Of a stretch of 64,000 nucleotides of DNA, positions 1-51,200 are shown one piece after another. The stretch lies in IMG/VR virus record IMGVR_UViG_3300038701_001599, positions 1-64,000 of that record; one strand, 5' to 3'. The notes under the pieces were generated by a model. The model had not been told where the DNA came from, did no database searches, and worked only from the letters and a program-made list of their open reading frames with translations. The number at the start of each line of letters is the position of its first letter. Within the stretch, counting starts at the first letter, position 1. The position numbers and the translations under genes are program-made. The stretch comes from a virus.

Positions 1-1
1 T

Positions 2-39
2 AGAGATTTATGAATAGTAATTTATTCACAGTAATCTCT
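2..39. repeat. Compound inverted repeat (hairpin) at window start
   Basis: AGAGATT (2-8) pairs with AATCTCT (33-39). Inner TGAATA (11-16) pairs with TATTCA (23-28). Lies in a non-coding AT-rich leader. Confidence 0.5.
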
Positions 40-93
40 TTATTCTTGATATTTATTTAATTTTCTAAGTTTAATTTAGAGATCTAAGAATAG

Positions 94-120
94 CTAAATC
101 CTTGTAAATGAAGGATTTAG
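94..120. repeat. Perfect 10-bp inverted repeat hairpin
   Basis: CTAAATCCTT (94-103) pairs perfectly with AAGGATTTAG (111-120); 7-nt loop GTAAATG. Confidence 0.5.
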
Positions 121-123
121 GAG

Positions 124-163
124 TATAACGAAAATTTCGTTATATAACTAAAGATTACGTTAT
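124..163. promoter_or_regulatory. Two adjacent ATAAC..GTTAT inverted repeats (candidate protein-binding sites)
   Basis: TATAACGA..TCGTTATA palindrome (124-144) is followed by ATAAC-N9-GTTAT (145-163). Both share the same half-site. Function unknown. Confidence 0.3.
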
Positions 164-271
164 GACCTATATTTCTGTCCCTAAATGGGTCAGTCTCATA
201 GGTTATTAATAAAACTCGTTAGGGCGAGTATAAACAGTCATTTAAGCCCTAAGCGTTAATTTTAGCATAAA

Positions 272-664
272 ATGTTAATTTTAGGTATGAATAATAATTC
301 TATTTCTGTGACCTTCTTTTTAGAAGGAGCAGTGAGGTTGACAAGATCGACCAAAAGTGTGGTACTCAAACCACATACTTCTAAAACAGCTATTGGTACT
401 TTTGCGTACAGTGGGCAAACTTTGTCTTCTCACGATGTTGATGCAGAACCACGCCAAGCTACTCTGAAGCGCACATTCGAGCCAGATTTTTTCATGAACA
501 TGCCGTCAAGATCTCAATTGAGAATTCTGGGCATCCACGGACGCGATCGGAAGAAAGTAGCCCGTAATTGGGCTGCTACGCCGACAGAGACTAAGATTAA
601 CTCTAATCTGGCTGACCTTGCCCATGACTTTGGAGCAGTCAGCTTTGAGTGGTCTTACCTCTAA
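272..664 (+). CDS. Hypothetical ORF inside GC-richer island; coding status doubtful
   Basis: 130-codon ORF, but S/T/R-rich composition unlike the K/N/I-rich proteins of this phage. The GC-rich stretch continues about 200 nt past its stop. Confidence 0.25.
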   Translation: MLILGMNNNSISVTFFLEGAVRLTRSTKSVVLKPHTSKTAIGTFAYSGQTLSSHDVDAEPRQATLKRTFEPDFFMNMPSRSQLRILGIHGRDRKKVARNWAATPTETKINSNLADLAHDFGAVSFEWSYL

Positions 665-860
665 ACCTCTAAAACTGTCAATAGCACGACTCTAACAAGT
701 TTACCTTACTGCTGAAATCGGCTCTCCAACGCACCGATATAGCGCCTAAGGATTTAAAGTTAGAGTATTTTTTAACCGTTGCAGGAATTACAATAAATTT
801 AGTAGCTGAAATAAATAATAGGATGAGCGACAGTGGTGGCTTCTAGCCCGTAAAATTCCT
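300..860 (+). ncRNA. Candidate large structured RNA (family unknown)
   Basis: 40-50% GC per 60-nt line against about 25-30% elsewhere. Many perfect 6-7 bp hairpins (312-327, 336-352, 357-376, 557-576, 594-609, 611-643). Sits immediately upstream of the tRNA cluster. Confidence 0.3.
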
Positions 861-861
861 A

Positions 862-1248
862 GTGCTATTAAACAAAATAGGAATGAGTCAGGTAGACAAT
901 ATTTTCAATGGTAATTCCTGCATTTTTAAACGTCAAAATCAAATTATTATGCATATCAAAGAAAATTCTAAGTTTGTAAAAAAGATTTTTCCGATTGCGG
1001 GGGTTTATTCATCAGAAACCAATCAAATTACAGAGGTCTCTGTTGGAAAAGGGTGGGACACCCTTAAAGAAGCAATAGACTTTGTAAAAGAGCAACAAGA
1101 GGCTGTTCAAACTTTCCAAGAAAAAACAGGAATAATGTGGTTTAACACAGAGGAAAAAGTAGGCAAGGTCTTTGACCCAAAAGGGCAGACTATAACCCAT
1201 GTGTTTTATTTTTCTGGGAAATTCGTCGAACAATTTGCCAAAAAATAG
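862..1248 (+). CDS. Hypothetical protein (ATG alternatives at 883 and 949)
   Basis: ORF track. The first codon is GTG; in-frame ATG at 949 gives MHIKENSKF... No recognisable motif. Confidence 0.5.
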   Translation: MLLNKIGMSQVDNIFNGNSCIFKRQNQIIMHIKENSKFVKKIFPIAGVYSSETNQITEVSVGKGWDTLKEAIDFVKEQQEAVQTFQEKTGIMWFNTEEKVGKVFDPKGQTITHVFYFSGKFVEQFAKK

Positions 1249-1328
1249 CTTAGCGTACTGAATTAGGTAAAGACAGGCCCTTAATTGAGGTCTGTCTATA
1301 ATTCTAATTTCTAATATAAGTCGAACAT

Positions 1329-1414
1329 GCCGAGATGTTGGAACTGGTAGACAAGCCAGACTTAAAATCTGGTGGACAGCATTGTCCGTGAGGGTTCGAG
1401 TCCCTCTCTCGGTA
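1329..1414 (+). tRNA. tRNA-Leu (anticodon UAA), type II with long variable arm
   Basis: 86 nt. Acceptor GCCGAGA/TCTCGGT (G1-U72 wobble); 3-bp D stem TTG/CAA. Anticodon stem CCAGA/TCTGG with loop CTTAAAA. Variable arm GGACA..TGTCC; T arm GAGGG-TTCGAGT-CCCTC. No encoded CCA. Confidence 0.85.
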
Positions 1415-1453
1415 CTATTTTTTTGTAAGGGGATTGCCTAAAGTATCCCTAAC

Positions 1454-1505
1454 TGCTTAACTATACGAAAGGCTAGAGAGCTAGACACTCTTTAATAGTT
1501 AAGCA
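1454..1505 (+). other. Long perfect hairpin (11-bp stem) abutting tRNA-Arg
   Basis: TGCTTAACTAT (1454-1464) pairs perfectly with ATAGTTAAGCA (1495-1505). The 30-nt loop contains a CTAG-AGAG-CTAG mini-hairpin (1473-1484). Confidence 0.5.
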
Positions 1506-1510
1506 CATTT

Positions 1511-1584
1511 AGCCCCGTAGCTCAGTTGGATAGAGCATGAGATTTCTAATCTCACGGTCGCAGGTTCGAGTCCTGTCGGGGCTA
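1511..1584 (+). tRNA. tRNA-Arg (anticodon UCU)
   Basis: 74 nt. Acceptor AGCCCCG/CGGGGCT; D arm GCTC-AGTTGGATA-GAGC. Anticodon stem TGAGA/TCTCA with loop TTTCTAA. T arm GCAGG-TTCGAGT-CCTGT. Confidence 0.85.
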
Positions 1585-1783
1585 CTAATCTTTTCATTTA
1601 ATTAAATCAGAATCATGGAAGAATCTTATATTATCGAGCTTGAGGGCCTGCCCTCTCAAGAAGAAATCTTGGCTGAATTTTATCAGCCTCATTTATTAAT
1701 CTTAAAAGAACAACCATCATGAAAATAGTAGGACAAGAAAAAACCGCATTTCATATTAAAAGAAGAGCCTCTTAAAGAGAAGT

Positions 1784-1969
1784 TTGAACCATTATCTTTT
1801 CATTAACCTTAATATCATGAAGAAAAAGTATCTTACAGCAGCAGAACAGGCTGAAAATTTAACCCGTGCCCACAGAAAAGGGCTTGTTCCTAAGACTAAT
1901 GTTATTTCAACTAAAAAAGTAACAAAACACACAAATAGAAGGGGTAACACCTTAACGTTTGTGAGTTAA
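1784..1969 (+). CDS. Small basic hypothetical protein (likely start ATG 1817)
   Basis: ORF track; in-frame ATG at 1817 gives MKKKYLTAAEQAENL... Confidence 0.4.
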   Translation: MNHYLFINLNIMKKKYLTAAEQAENLTRAHRKGLVPKTNVISTKKVTKHTNRRGNTLTFVS

Positions 1970-1994
1970 AAATACATTGGTTTGGTATTCAAAT

Positions 1995-2054
1995 GAGAGT
2001 GTCTAGCAATTGCTGGAATTTGCTTATGCAAATGCTTCCTTAGAAGCCACTCTC
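1995..2054 (+). ncRNA. Perfect 60-nt cloverleaf / four-way junction (tRNA-like or branched terminator)
   Basis: Closing helix GAGAGTG (1995-2001)/CACTCTC (2048-2054). It encloses three abutting hairpins (2002-2017, 2018-2033, 2034-2047) with 4-nt loops. 24 bp in total, no junction nucleotides. Followed by TTTTCTCTTT. Confidence 0.5.
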
Positions 2055-2160
2055 TTTTCTCTTTGCAAAAAATTTTAAATGTTTAGTTTAACCGAAATTA
2101 AAGCATTAGCAACGTAGAATAGTTAAAAAGTGCTAGTATTAATCTAAAATAAAATAATTA

Positions 2161-2234
2161 GGTCTCTTAGCTCAGCTGGTTAGAGCACCGCACTCATAAT
2201 GCGGGGGTCGTCAGTTCAATCCTGACAGAGACCA
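2161..2234 (+). tRNA. tRNA with CAU anticodon (elongator Met, or Ile2 if lysidinylated)
   Basis: 74 nt. Acceptor GGTCTCT/AGAGACC; D arm GCTC-AGCTGGTTA-GAGC. Anticodon stem CCGCA/TGCGG with loop CTCATAA. T arm GTCAG-TTCAATC-CTGAC. G1-C72 pair argues against an initiator. Confidence 0.8.
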
Positions 2235-2249
2235 CAAAAACAAGTAATT

Positions 2250-2435
2250 ATGATAACAATTGAACAATTGATAGCAAAAGCAAAAGAAAAAAGAGTATTA
2301 TTTTCAAAAGGAGATATAAGATTATGCTATAATTTAGAAAACTCTTATGAATTATACAATGGCTATAAATTGCTTATGGTAACTTATAGAGCAGATTTAG
2401 CGGCTATTTGCTATAATGAATTAATTTCACAGTAA
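2250..2435 (+). CDS. Hypothetical protein
   Basis: ORF track; starts 16 nt after the CAU tRNA. Confidence 0.5.
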   Translation: MITIEQLIAKAKEKRVLFSKGDIRLCYNLENSYELYNGYKLLMVTYRADLAAICYNELISQ

Positions 2436-2488
2436 AGGTAATCTCCTACCTAGCAAAGGAGAATAATTAATTTTTAAATCTCAGTAAC

Positions 2489-2815
2489 ATGAGTAAATTA
2501 GAAAGACCCGAATTCTTTGGGTCAAAAGGTTGTATCATTCAACTTGGACGTAGCCGAAACAACAACAGGACTATGCGTCAGTTGAAAGATATGATACTTG
2601 CCTTATCAAATTCTTCTAGTAAGAAATTCCAGAGTAATTTGGAGTATCTTCAGAAGAGTATTCACGAAGCTTTCGACAATCGAAAAATTGACAACTTCGA
2701 GGCAATGTGGCTACAACGCCTAATAGACTCAGAAGAAGTTAATTTTTGCCTTGATCTAATTGGGTATGACCCAAAAATGGAGAAGGCACTGGAAGTCTAC
2801 AACCAGCGTAAATAG
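2489..2815 (+). CDS. Hypothetical protein
   Basis: ORF track; 108 aa, no recognised motif. Confidence 0.55.
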   Translation: MSKLERPEFFGSKGCIIQLGRSRNNNRTMRQLKDMILALSNSSSKKFQSNLEYLQKSIHEAFDNRKIDNFEAMWLQRLIDSEEVNFCLDLIGYDPKMEKALEVYNQRK

Positions 2816-2858
2816 TAGAATAACTGTTTTAATTTTTTTAACTGTAAAACTGTAAATA

Positions 2859-3233
2859 ATGAAAACATTCAATGTAGTAGCTAATGTAGCTACATTCAAC
2901 TCAGGTACTGAAGACTCTAACGGACTAGCACCAGTAATTTTCCGACCAGTTGCCGGGGGAATCCCACGCAATGCGATGGTAATCGCTGGAACTATCGCCA
3001 AAAACGAGGGCTTTGAGCCAGGTAATAACTACCTTTTGCAAGTTCGCGAACTCGAAGAAAAGCACCCTGAATACGGTACTCAGTATCGCCACAGCAATTT
3101 CGGTAAGCTTTCTCCTATGGAGCTAATGTCGGCGGACGTCAAAGCTATGGGAGCACCTAAAGTTCTTACTGTTGCTGAGCAGGAAGAAGAGGCAGAAACT
3201 GCCGATGCACTGAACGAGGGAGCTACTGCATAG
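2859..3233 (+). CDS. Hypothetical protein, GC-rich gene with acidic C-terminus
   Basis: ORF track. Local GC is much higher than the genome background. Followed by its own intrinsic terminator. Confidence 0.65.
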   Translation: MKTFNVVANVATFNSGTEDSNGLAPVIFRPVAGGIPRNAMVIAGTIAKNEGFEPGNNYLLQVRELEEKHPEYGTQYRHSNFGKLSPMELMSADVKAMGAPKVLTVAEQEEEAETADALNEGATA

Positions 3234-3249
3234 TAGGCCCAACTCTTTT

Positions 3250-3287
3250 GGAGGTTAGAGTATAAAGAACCTCCACTTTTAATTTTT
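3250..3287 (+). terminator. Rho-independent terminator
   Basis: GGAGGTT (3250-3256) pairs with AACCTCC (3268-3274), followed by ACTTTTAATTTTT. Confidence 0.65.
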
Positions 3288-3324
3288 AATTTGTATTTTT
3301 AAATCCTTTTAATTAAAAAATTCT

Positions 3325-3822
3325 ATGGAAATTTCTGTTGAAAACAAACAATTGAGCCAACAGCGTATGAACTACGCTAAACTCCAAGCCATCCTTGCAT
3401 TCTTAGCAACGACTCCCAAGGAGAAAATTGCAGGAGAAGATATTGCCCAAATGTCTCAGGAGGCTGGGGCTGCCCTGTCTTCCATGCAGGAAAACCCTGG
3501 TGTCATTGCAGTCCACAAGACTGCTGAGGCTATGGGGGTATTCAACGAGGCTGGAGAGCTAACCTCAAAAGGTATGGCAATTGCCCAGACCTGTTTGAAT
3601 GCGCGGCCTGGATCGCGATACAAGGTGAACTACGAAGAATTCTTCCGCAATCAGGCGCTTGGTGGGCTGTTCGCAGCTCAAAAAGCCTTGGCAGACGAAT
3701 TGAAGTCTCGAATTGAACAGTTCCAAGAACAGGACGGCTTTAAAGCTGAAGGCCAAACAGCCAAACTGTTTGAAGAAGTAGGTGAGTTCTACATGCAACT
3801 CGCTGGAATTGAGCTTGAATAA
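3325..3822 (+). CDS. Hypothetical protein, GC-rich gene
   Basis: ORF track; A/E/G/Q-rich composition unlike neighbouring genes. Followed by its own terminator. Confidence 0.65.
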   Translation: MEISVENKQLSQQRMNYAKLQAILAFLATTPKEKIAGEDIAQMSQEAGAALSSMQENPGVIAVHKTAEAMGVFNEAGELTSKGMAIAQTCLNARPGSRYKVNYEEFFRNQALGGLFAAQKALADELKSRIEQFQEQDGFKAEGQTAKLFEEVGEFYMQLAGIELE

Positions 3823-3842
3823 GCCAATTCCATAATATAAAT

Positions 3843-3880
3843 GTGAGGTTGGTACTACGGTACTGACCTCACTATTTTTT
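3843..3880 (+). terminator. Rho-independent terminator
   Basis: GTGAGGT (3843-3849) pairs with ACCTCAC (3866-3872), followed by TATTTTTT. Confidence 0.7.
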
Positions 3881-3895
3881 AACAAATTAATAACA

Positions 3896-4492
3896 ATGAT
3901 TAATGCTAAAATTAAATCATTACTAACATTAGTTACAACTCCTTTAATTATAGTAAGTATGCTGCTATTTATTCCCAGAACTGCAGCAAATAATAACCAA
4001 ACCAAACAAGAAATAAATCAGGCAATAGAAGCCTATTATGATAGAATTTTTGATGGAGGAGAGTTGCCTGAAATACAAGTGACTGCAAAGCTAACCTTCT
4101 CCCAAAAAATTTACTTACTTGCTAGATTGATAAACAGTGAAGCAGGTAATGAGCCATTATTGGGAAAAATAGCTGTAGCTAATGTTGTAAGAACAAGAGC
4201 TAGAGTTAAGAATAAAACTATAAAGGAAATTATATATCAAAGGAATAAATACGGCCCTCAATTTGATGGTATTGATACTGAAAGATTTAATAGAGTACCA
4301 TCAAAAGAATGCATTATAGCAGCTAAAAGAGGGCTTACAGAGTATGTTATACCAGAGTCAGTATATTATTTCCACAACCCTAAAATATCAACTGATAGTA
4401 AGCACGTGAAACGTGTTGAAAAATATACTTATAAAGACATAGGAAATCATAGATTTTGTCACAATCCTAAATTAATGAAACCATGTTTATAA
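3896..4492 (+). CDS. Cell wall hydrolase, SleB/CwlJ-like, with N-terminal hydrophobic anchor
   Basis: LLARLINSEAGNEPLLGKIAVANVVRTRA matches the SleB-family core (EA.GEP..G..AVA.V..NR). N-terminal segment LLTLVTTPLIIVSMLLFI. Confidence 0.65.
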   Translation: MINAKIKSLLTLVTTPLIIVSMLLFIPRTAANNNQTKQEINQAIEAYYDRIFDGGELPEIQVTAKLTFSQKIYLLARLINSEAGNEPLLGKIAVANVVRTRARVKNKTIKEIIYQRNKYGPQFDGIDTERFNRVPSKECIIAAKRGLTEYVIPESVYYFHNPKISTDSKHVKRVEKYTYKDIGNHRFCHNPKLMKPCL

Positions 4493-48200: not shown

Positions 48201-51200
48201 GCAGTTACTTCTGCTTTACTAGGAAATAATAAATTATTTTTTACTATGTCTTTAATTGGAGTATCAGGATTTTGCTCTCTAAAAGTACTTAATACATCAT
48301 CTAATACAGAAGTCATAGTATCTATAACTCTCTGATATTCAGCAGGATTAGGATATAATGGATGCTTTTTAAACTTAGGTAGTATACTAGAAACATCTCT
48401 TTTAAATTCTTTATTAGCAAATTGTCCCTCATTAATTCTCCAAAATAATTGATCTATTGTAGGTTTATTATTAACTAAAGATTGTATAAACTCTAGTAAA
48501 TTTTTAAATACTCTTTTTATTCTAGAAGGCAGACTAATAGAAGTTTTAGAATTTTTCCACTTTTTAAAGTTTTCAATATCTTGCTTAGTACCTAAACTAT
48601 AAATATTTTCTGAACGAGGAGTAAAGTAGTCTAAGTTACCTATATCCCACTTAGTCTCTGCATTTTTTAATATAGCTAAAGTAATGTTTTTACTAACATC
48701 AGCATTGGCCTCTGTATCTAAAATAGATCTAGAATATTGTTCTGCTAAATCCCTTTTTGCAGTAAAGTAAAAGTTTAAATCTGATGGAGTACCAAATCCT
48801 TCTCCAATAAAAGAACTATCAAATTGTTCAATAACGCCTTCTTTATAACTACCGTGATATAAGATATTAGAAAACTCACTACCTGAAAAATTACTACTTA
48901 AATAATCTAAATATTCAGTAGTAGTTCCAACCTTAGCTAATTCTTCGTTATTTTTAAATAGAAAATTTACTGCGTTTTTATTATGAAAAGAATGAGTCTT
49001 TGTAAATTTATTTTGAGACTTAACATATTCCATAAAATCATCTGCTAATTTTTCTTCTAATACTAAATCTTTAGCTTCTGTTTCTGAAATATCAATACCA
49101 GACTCTTTTACTTGAGCTATCATATCAGAAACTTCTTTAGAACTAACATTATATCTTTTATCTGCTGCCCTTAATATTCTACCTGCCTCCTTTTCAGAAA
49201 GGTACATATTAAATACAGCGTGGAAAGCTTCGTGATAAGTAGTACCAGCTTGAGCAGACTCTAGTAGATGTATAACACCATTATAAAATGCACCATATCC
49301 ATTTATTCCAAACTGCTTTAAAAATGTTAAAGAGTCGTATACTTTATTACTTACATTTGGTAAATTTTCTTTTAACCAAGCTAGTTCTTCTTCTTTATTC
49401 CATACTTCTCTAGGCTTATTTGAATCTACTGTTTTAAATTTAGGAATTTCAACTCCTAGTTTTTCTAATTTATTTGATACATCCCATACATAAGGATCAA
49501 CAGATGTACCTATAGATTCTGGATTAAACTCAGTAGACTCTGAGTCTGGTAATACAAAAATAACAGAGTCAGAATTTAAATTTGGTTCTACAAAGCTTTT
49601 CCAATTTTCAATAGATACACTAACACACCCAAAACTAGCTTTATTGTCTTCTATATTACTTGACTTTAAATTCTTAATAGTGCTCTTAATATTAGGGTGA
49701 AATGCGTTTATAAGACCTCCAGAATTAGTTCCTTCTAGGGCGTAAATATATTCAGACCCGTAATCCGTATTGTCTAACTTACTTAATTTAAAAGTTCCTG
49801 CAGGAGTAATTTTAGGAATTCCTAATTGATTATAATAATTATAAGGATTCTTAAATTTAGCTTTACCTTCTGGTGTTAAATTTTCCCAAGCAATACTTAC
49901 TTTAAATTGTTGATCTCCATAGTTTGCTCCAAAAATACTTGGAAATTCTTTTACTAAATTATTAGAAGAGTCAAATATTAAAACTCTGGCATTGGGTTTA
50001 TCTGCAATAACATAACCAGACTTTAATTCTCCTTTGTTAAAATTGTTTTGCTGTAAAGCATATACTTTTGCAGCATTTCCTGTTAGTGTAAGATTATCTA
50101 CAGATATACTATCTTGATAATTAATAACACCATTAGCAGCTCTAGTAAAAAACTCAGATTTTTCTATTTTAGTATCAGGAGAAATAAATGCAGTATTAGT
50201 AAAATATAAACTAGAAATAACTGCTACGGATAATATAGCTTTAGAAATTTTCTTAATAATGTCTTTAATTTTAGACATGACTCTCTTACCAGTATTATAA
50301 TTTACTACTTGATTAGAAACAAATTTTTCTAAAGTAGAATTATCTTGACTATTTGATACATCCTGTTTAGCTTCTTCATAGGCTTCTTCTAAGGCTATTT
50401 TTTCTTTAGTAAGTAAATTTTCTACTTGCTCTCTAATTTCTTTTAGAGCAGGAACTTTAGGTTCCTGAGGAGTATCTTTTTTAGTAGCTCTCTTCCTACG
50501 CATCATTTCTAAAGGAGATAGTACTTTTCCTTCTACTGGAGATTCTCCTGTTTCAGTTGGCTTACTTTCTATAGTAGTTTCTGGAGTGTTAACTCTCTTT
50601 TTGTTGTCAACTACTTTTGAAACATCAAGTGCCTTATTTACTTCTATTATTTGTTCTTGAGTAGATTGTAAGGGTTGTTGAGTACCTTCTACTGTAGTAG
50701 TACTTACAGAAGGAGTAACTTTACTTAAAATCTTTTCTCTAGTTTTACCACTCTTGAATCTCTCTTTACCTTTAGTAGTTTTACCTAAAGATATGATTCT
50801 ATTATCTGGTAACACATAATAAGAAGTATTAGCATGGTCTACTTTTCTACCAGGGTCATAATCTTTTTTAACTAAATACTTATTAATAGTAGACTCGTCA
50901 GTAACCTCATTACCATTATCGTAGAAGTATTTACCATCTTTTTCAGTAATAATAAATTGCTCTACTTTAATTCCTTTAGTTGTATCTTGGTCTGTAGGTA
51001 CTTGAGTTTCTAAAGAAGCTAATTCTGCATCATATTTAGCGTTAATTTTATTATAAGTAGTTTCTTGTAATATATATTTGCCAGCACTTACACTAATACC
51101 AAACTTTTCTTTTACTAATTCACTTATTTCTTCAAAAGTTTTTCCTACCTTCATTAGTGCTTTAACATAAGATTGCGCTTTCTTAGAATCCTTTCTATCT

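Follow-up and report, generated by a model that had tools for sequence, protein, structure and literature searches.

About 2 kb into a crAss-like phage genome lies a 60-nt element that folds into a perfect four-way RNA junction, with no nucleotides between its helices, and is followed directly by a T-rich tract. It occupies positions 1995-2054 on the + strand of the window, by which we mean the whole 64-kb stretch of DNA analysed here. Its anatomy and context suggest a non-canonical, branched Rho-independent terminator that also caps the 3′ end of the RNA, a reading that we hold tentatively and with slightly less than even confidence.

The window covers the first 64 kb of a virus genome that is complete at 108,763 bp and has ~29% G+C. 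Judged from its sequence, the genome is that of a crAss-like phage; the best named matches of its PolA protein, at 42% identity or less, are Crassvirales (cr108_1, DAC15 and IAS virus). Relatives gathered on the basis of PolA are at most 45% identical, and Logan assemblies hold closer ones (74-98% identical). We read the 127-bp terminal repeat of the record as an assembly overlap. The + strand carries the genes from ~105.1 kb onward, across the contig start and up to 37.7 kb; those of the remaining stretch are on the - strand. The element falls within a GC-richer, apparently accessory region of 4 kb, whose features are as follows, in window coordinates.

214-290, + strand: Pistol ribozyme (RF02679; 56.6 bits, gathering score 34.5), overlapping the start of ORF 272-664 and on the same precursor as the tRNAs
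272-664 and 862-1248, + strand: upstream ORFs, placed between the Pistol ribozyme and tRNA-Leu
1329-1415, + strand: tRNA-Leu(UAA)
1454-1505, + strand: 11-bp hairpin just before tRNA-Arg
1480-1491, + strand: 12-nt word complementary to 1996-2007, in the loop of that hairpin
1511-1585, + strand: tRNA-Arg(UCU)
Between tRNA-Arg and the 50-aa ORF, + strand: 35-aa ORF
1817-1969, + strand: 50-aa basic mini-gene
1995-2001, + strand: 5′ strand of the closing helix, GAGAGTG, paired with 2048-2054 (7 bp, 4 of them G-C)
2002-2017, + strand: hairpin 1, 6 bp, loop AATT (AAUU), with the single wobble T2004.G2015
2018-2033, + strand: hairpin 2, 6 bp, loop TTAT (UUAU)
2034-2047, + strand: hairpin 3, 5 bp, loop CTTA (CUUA)
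2048-2054, + strand: 3′ strand of the closing helix, CACTCTC
2055-2064, + strand: T-tract TTTTCTCTTT, 8 of 10 T, adjoining the closing helix; presumed terminator U-tract
2161-2235, + strand: tRNA(CAU), the next gene downstream (ARAGORN; RF00005, 69.1 bits)
2859-3233 and 3325-3822, + strand: two of the small ORFs past tRNA(CAU), with hairpin-plus-T terminators at 3249-3275 and 3843-3872, respectively

An earlier sequence-only reading of the window had described the element, and on re-reading the sequence and every stem are as it gave them. The three hairpins do abut directly, with zero junction nucleotides; TTTTCTCTTT does follow immediately; the stop of ORF 1817-1969 is indeed 25 nt upstream; and the gap to tRNA(CAU), put at about 105 nt, is 106 nt.

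The gene just upstream deserves description. Because two variants of its product, identical in length and 74-76% identical in sequence (P0027 and P0028), occur on Logan contigs of 2,661 and 76,051 nt, respectively, we regard the 50-aa ORF as a real conserved gene. The protein is rich in Lys and Arg, lineage-specific and conserved in length, and no Pfam, PHROG or remote homologue of it was found. Within its cluster the 108-aa protein nearby keeps at least 90% identity, against 74-76% for the 50-aa protein, so sequence change is faster around the junction than in the flanks.

Farther upstream, a run of seven T begins 3 nt past the discriminator base of tRNA-Leu (window 1416-1426). There a genuine cloverleaf also abuts a T-tract, and partial termination after tRNA-Leu is a possibility.

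Folding with ViennaRNA gives the four-way junction as both the minimum-free-energy (MFE) structure and the centroid, at -26.3 kcal/mol and 0.73 of the ensemble. All of its helices are perfect and internal loops are absent. The junction is kept when the element is folded in 226-nt and 655-nt contexts, it is the MFE structure from 15 to 60 C, and the pair probabilities of the closing stem are at least 0.99. The closing helix contributes -8.6 kcal/mol beyond the three hairpins, which singly are worth -4.2 to -6.4 kcal/mol each. The geometry suggests that hairpin 3 and the closing helix can form one stack of 12 bp. The - strand folds at -23.0 kcal/mol as compared with -26.3 kcal/mol for the + strand, the G.U wobble becoming a C.A mismatch; this strand bias is a weak clue, since a single transition gives the same half of the time by chance.

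The fold is confirmed as not due to chance. The sequence-only reading had suggested folding against shuffled controls, and none of 200 shuffles was as stable (z -5.69). In a descriptor scan for compact four-way junctions on both strands of the 108.8-kb genome, the element ranks first. The scan was repeated on 40 locally dinucleotide-shuffled genomes, a control that corrects for the search of a whole genome; the best junction per shuffled genome averaged -7.8 kcal/mol (sd 4.0, extreme -16.2), and a rough Gumbel extrapolation from these values gives P ~0.002. No locus as stable was found in the AT-rich loci of crAss-like relatives, which come to ~1 Mb over both strands. In a scan of sliding 60-nt stretches across the whole genome, both strands included, the element is among the approximately five most stable places, and none of the others has three hairpins. 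Many of the most stable 60-nt stretches in that scan cluster at genome coordinates 72000-79000 and 106500-107700, both of which are G+C-richer.

The T-tract is the strongest functional clue. Ten-mers this rich in T (at least eight) account for 0.2-0.5% of positions on the + strand and for 1.5% of those in the local intergenic DNA; a T-rich tail follows just two of the 30 most stable 60-nt stretches in the genome, the element itself and the terminator at 3843-3872. The 7-bp helix, with its four G-C pairs, ends at 2054 and the T-tract starts at 2055. The element stands past a gene stop, on the transcribed strand and within the + strand gene block, and its slot after the 50-aa gene is the one that plain hairpin-plus-T terminators occupy after ORFs 2859-3233 and 3325-3822. 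Rho-independent terminators likewise consist of a G-C-containing helix abutting a U-rich tract of ~8-10 nt, on the coding strand and tens of nucleotides past a stop. They differ in being single hairpins with a loop of usually ~3-8 nt, whereas here the ‘loop’ is 46 nt long and made of three hairpins. Because these inner hairpins are weak, and because hairpin 3 ends 7 nt short of the T-tract, the functional stem would be the closing helix. A helix branched in this way would be missed by pattern-based terminator finders, and a consensus terminator scan caught only hairpins 1 and 3 of the element.

If the element does terminate transcription, it would do so on the + strand transcript of an early or accessory region of the phage. 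Transcription from upstream would cross the Pistol ribozyme, two ORFs, tRNA-Leu, tRNA-Arg and two mini-genes before reaching it. The three short hairpins would fold successively on leaving the polymerase, and CACUCUC, on emerging, would pair with GAGAGUG to set a 7-bp helix (-8.6 kcal/mol) against the U-rich UUUUCUCUUU. Closed helix and UUUUCUCUUU together would present the geometry that releases RNA polymerase at ordinary terminators. The RNA set free would finish in a four-way junction that is compact and fully paired (-26 kcal/mol) and that should block 3′-to-5′ exonucleases and stabilise the message of the upstream mini-gene; tRNA(CAU) and the genes following it would form a separate unit.

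A source for such a transcript can be proposed. Four exact copies of AAAAACTATTTCC lie on the + strand outside the window, starting at genome coordinates 107098, 107441, 107935 and 108556. All are intergenic, and the motif is found nowhere else in the genome. TTCTAATYYTTGA stands 10-20 nt after two or three of the four copies, with variant forms after the others, and a fifth site, with TTCTAATCCTTGA, is at genome coordinate 106407 (+). Together AAAAACTATTTCC and TTCTAATYYTTGA are probably the promoter set of the early rightward genes. The AAAAACTATTTCC motif is absent from positions 1-4000, and therefore a transcript from its last copy would run into the junction. Other promoter searches were negative: a Bacteroidetes-type promoter motif showed no enrichment, a naive k-mer search gave nothing near the element, and no promoter was identified between the element and tRNA(CAU).

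Several considerations count against termination. The 46-nt insert between the helix strands should slow closure, the search for a promoter ahead of tRNA(CAU) was negative, and the phage makes simple terminators nearby, which leaves the elaborate form without explanation. To our knowledge no intrinsic terminator characterised so far takes the form of a four-way junction, and the literature searched yielded no account of one; we found no described precedent for an intrinsic terminator with a branched stem. A branched intrinsic terminator was among the roles that the sequence-only reading had listed. The context it would need is present (abutting T-tract, position after a gene, G.U wobble on the + strand), and from this context we infer termination itself.

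That reading had also pointed to a tRNA-like topology while holding that the element is not a canonical tRNA, and in the latter it was correct. A 7-bp acceptor-like helix and a 5-bp 3′-proximal hairpin are present, but T and D loops, a 7-nt anticodon loop, junction bases 8, 9 and 26 and the variable region are absent. The Rfam tRNA model RF00005 has no match to the element at E<=10, and ARAGORN in tRNA mode finds nothing there in the standard run or with -ps or -ps80. With -ps50 it calls a different, overlapping stretch (~2033-2106). Only the permissive mitochondrial mode (-mt -ps) reports 1995-2055, as ‘mtRNA-???’ with a 2-nt or undefined anticodon.

From this topology an unlikely alternative can nevertheless be built. 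The element would be a tRNA-shaped, anticodon-less small RNA or processing mark, cut from a polycistronic tRNA/mRNA precursor by tRNA-processing enzymes, with RNase P acting at G1995 and RNase Z or exonucleases after C2054. The outcome would be either a mini-gene mRNA split from the tRNA, in the manner of a t-element, or a stable 60-nt decoy or sponge RNA. The four arms speak for it, as do the 7-bp and 5-bp helices, which would form a 12-bp stack like that of a tRNA acceptor and T stem, and the permissive mitochondrial call. Precedents are the mascRNA of MALAT1 and the species 1 and 2 RNAs of phage T4, which are tRNA-like. Plant mitochondrial t-elements, which are tRNA-like processing signals at mRNA ends (PMC1920247), are another. 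The element moreover lies inside a tRNA cluster whose precursor needs RNase P anyway and bears the Pistol ribozyme.

With tRNAs and these tRNA-like RNAs the element thus shares a four-arm cloverleaf, helices of 7 and 5 bp, a place among tRNA genes and an RNase P precursor. It differs from them in having no anticodon loop, no T or D consensus, no junction or variable nucleotides and no encoded or partial CCA. The known tRNA-like signals keep the T-arm elbow and the element does not; lacking T and D loops, it offers RNase P, RNase Z and the CCA-adding enzyme no elbow to measure from. Perfect four-way RNA junctions without linkers are expected to stack as an X and not as an L. The trailer would be UUUUCUC, as against three real tRNA trailers that all start A-C, and the T-tract is left without explanation. 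The evidence against a tRNA mimic or processing signal is the stronger. Of the mimic or decoy role put forward by the sequence-only reading, topology and helix lengths survive; the RF00005 and ARAGORN tRNA-mode results and the missing elbow go against it. Its more specific proposal of a decoy for anticodon nucleases is not credible and was rejected, as the element has no anticodon loop. In its most ambitious form, which we consider decidedly doubtful, the tRNA-shaped account would make the junction a phage RNA of a new kind: a minimal module, lacking an anticodon and having an acceptor-like stack of 12 bp, that is excised by the host tRNA-processing machinery and acts as operon punctuation or as a stable decoy or scaffold.

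It is adjacency to the 50-aa gene that suggests a further role, one that seems to us improbable. The junction might be a protein-binding RNA platform in a 3′ UTR, for example an operator or a site of assembly, bound by the 50-aa protein or by some other RNA-binding protein of phage or host and offering a rigid scaffold like that of the enterovirus 5′ cloverleaf. The upstream neighbour does encode a lineage-specific Lys/Arg-rich protein of conserved length, and the element, single-copy in the genome, is a rigid, fully paired scaffold that shows three A/U-rich tetraloops. The enterovirus 5′ cloverleaf and the hairpin-ribozyme junction are perfect four-way RNA junction scaffolds, in which, as here, a closing helix and three stem-loops meet with (almost) no unpaired junction bases. 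Those RNAs carry internal loops or protein-binding or active-site loop sequences, however; the element has none, and it sits at a gene 3′ end beside a U-tract. A binding platform would also leave the abutting T-tract without explanation, though such a platform could be a terminator at the same time, and the 50-aa protein brings no family or remote homologue to its support.

The sequence-only reading had further raised a DNA-level role, as a cruciform or four-way junction. What holds of this is that folding with DNA parameters gives the same structure (MFE -15.3 kcal/mol, z -5.3); the role itself is disfavoured, as the three palindromes are mutually different, a C.A mismatch interrupts the fold of the - strand and the T-tract is confined to one strand. 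In full, the proposal would be an immobile four-way junction, formed in single-stranded DNA or extruded from supercoiled DNA, that serves in replication priming, as an origin or as a site for a structure-specific nuclease, and we rate it very unlikely. Duplex DNA would not stably extrude arms as short as 5-7 bp. Parvovirus termini (the AAV ITR) and G4-type single-strand origins are nested-palindrome DNA hairpins, and the likeness is that an outer inverted repeat encloses smaller, different palindromes in a single-copy element that folds as DNA; this element, however, belongs to a 109-kb double-stranded phage, is not at a physical end and has much shorter arms. The cumulative GC-skew minimum and the region where the coding strand switches are ~2 kb from it, which would suit an origin, but the minimum is at the contig start, away from the element. 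The virion RNA polymerase of crAss-like phages prefers single-stranded templates, and the early promoters of phage phi14:2 have no known motif (bioRxiv 10.1101/2020.03.07.982082), which would fit a DNA-level role; the four-times-repeated upstream motif AAAAACTATTTCC is nevertheless the better promoter candidate, and T-tract and gene-end position fit an RNA signal.

Copies and relatives of the element were sought widely. Exact or loop-degenerate patterns of it have no match in IMG/VR or GTDB genomes, and neither tRNA(CAU) nor the neighbouring proteins, used as anchors, led to a copy in IMG/VR or the JGI metagenomes. BLASTN of positions 1200-3200 against INPHARED returned tRNA matches only; a similarity to an S-SSM7 tRNA was set aside as irrelevant. 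A covariance model built from the single sequence recovered only the element itself from this genome, had no hit in four other crAss-like records (three of them complete, the fourth ~68%) and gave only noise in 40 relative loci (E >=0.48). A descriptor scan of the relative loci gave no convincing counterpart, the best zero-linker match (L032) folding otherwise, and there is none at the left end or early region of phi14:2 or in the tRNA region of cr108_1. Rfam 15 holds no matching family; the sole overlap is a chance Histone3 hit (16.7 bits, E 1.3). The four-way-junction ribozymes (hairpin and twister-sister) and skipping-rope RNAs have no covariance match, and the element lacks the core and internal loops. 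A ribozyme or riboswitch was rejected, as the element has no unpaired core nucleotides or ligand pocket. An RNA/toxin pairing of the skipping-rope kind found no support; the neighbouring proteins, considered as nuclease or defence partners, have no family matches.

An orphan without copy or structural homologue in the collections searched or in distant relatives could be a functionless or selfish palindromic insert: a lineage-specific compound palindrome, such as the remnant of a mobile element or local duplication, whose stability is incidental. The GC-richer, apparently accessory surroundings would suit such an origin, and a 12-nt inverted copy of the 5′ end of the element lies 500 nt upstream. 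We think there is little chance that this is the explanation. Four nested, different helices with zero junction bases and three 4-nt loops would hardly arise unless the fold were selected, the genome has no further copies of the sort that a mobile element should leave behind, and position and T-tract fit a transcript signal.

The upstream word at 1480-1491 is complementary to 1996-2007, and both words are unique in the genome. By a shuffle test, such complementarity within 1 kb on either side has P ~0.012. Its pairing with the junction is not favoured, cofolding and folding in cis both keeping the two local structures, and a role as antiterminator is thermodynamically unfavoured. The word may be a partner site or may be due to chance, and its belonging to the feature is uncertain.

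Phage phi14:2 makes abundant early non-coding RNAs, with no function assigned, from the equivalent genome end (bioRxiv 10.1101/2020.03.07.982082), and unexplained RNA biology in this region therefore has precedent. If the element terminates transcription, intrinsic terminators are not necessarily simple hairpins, and a closing helix on a pre-folded multi-branch core suffices; standard terminator finders would then systematically miss such signals. Branched terminators would matter for operon annotation in the crAss-like phages, a group in which little of early transcription and of RNA biology has been worked out. The element would also be a compact part for synthetic biology, of 60 nt and -26 kcal/mol with no helix longer than 7 bp. 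Were it instead excised by tRNA enzymes, bacterial viruses would have a counterpart of the organellar t-elements or of mascRNA, and the element would add to the abundant early non-coding RNAs seen in phi14:2.

One other branched structure with a T-tract is found in the genome. The stretch 50402-50472 (+) folds at -22.3 kcal/mol (z -3.2) into three hairpins side by side, closed by a weak stem, and TATCTTTTTT comes after it. This cluster, weaker than the element, is antisense to the gene for a 4,593-aa virion protein.
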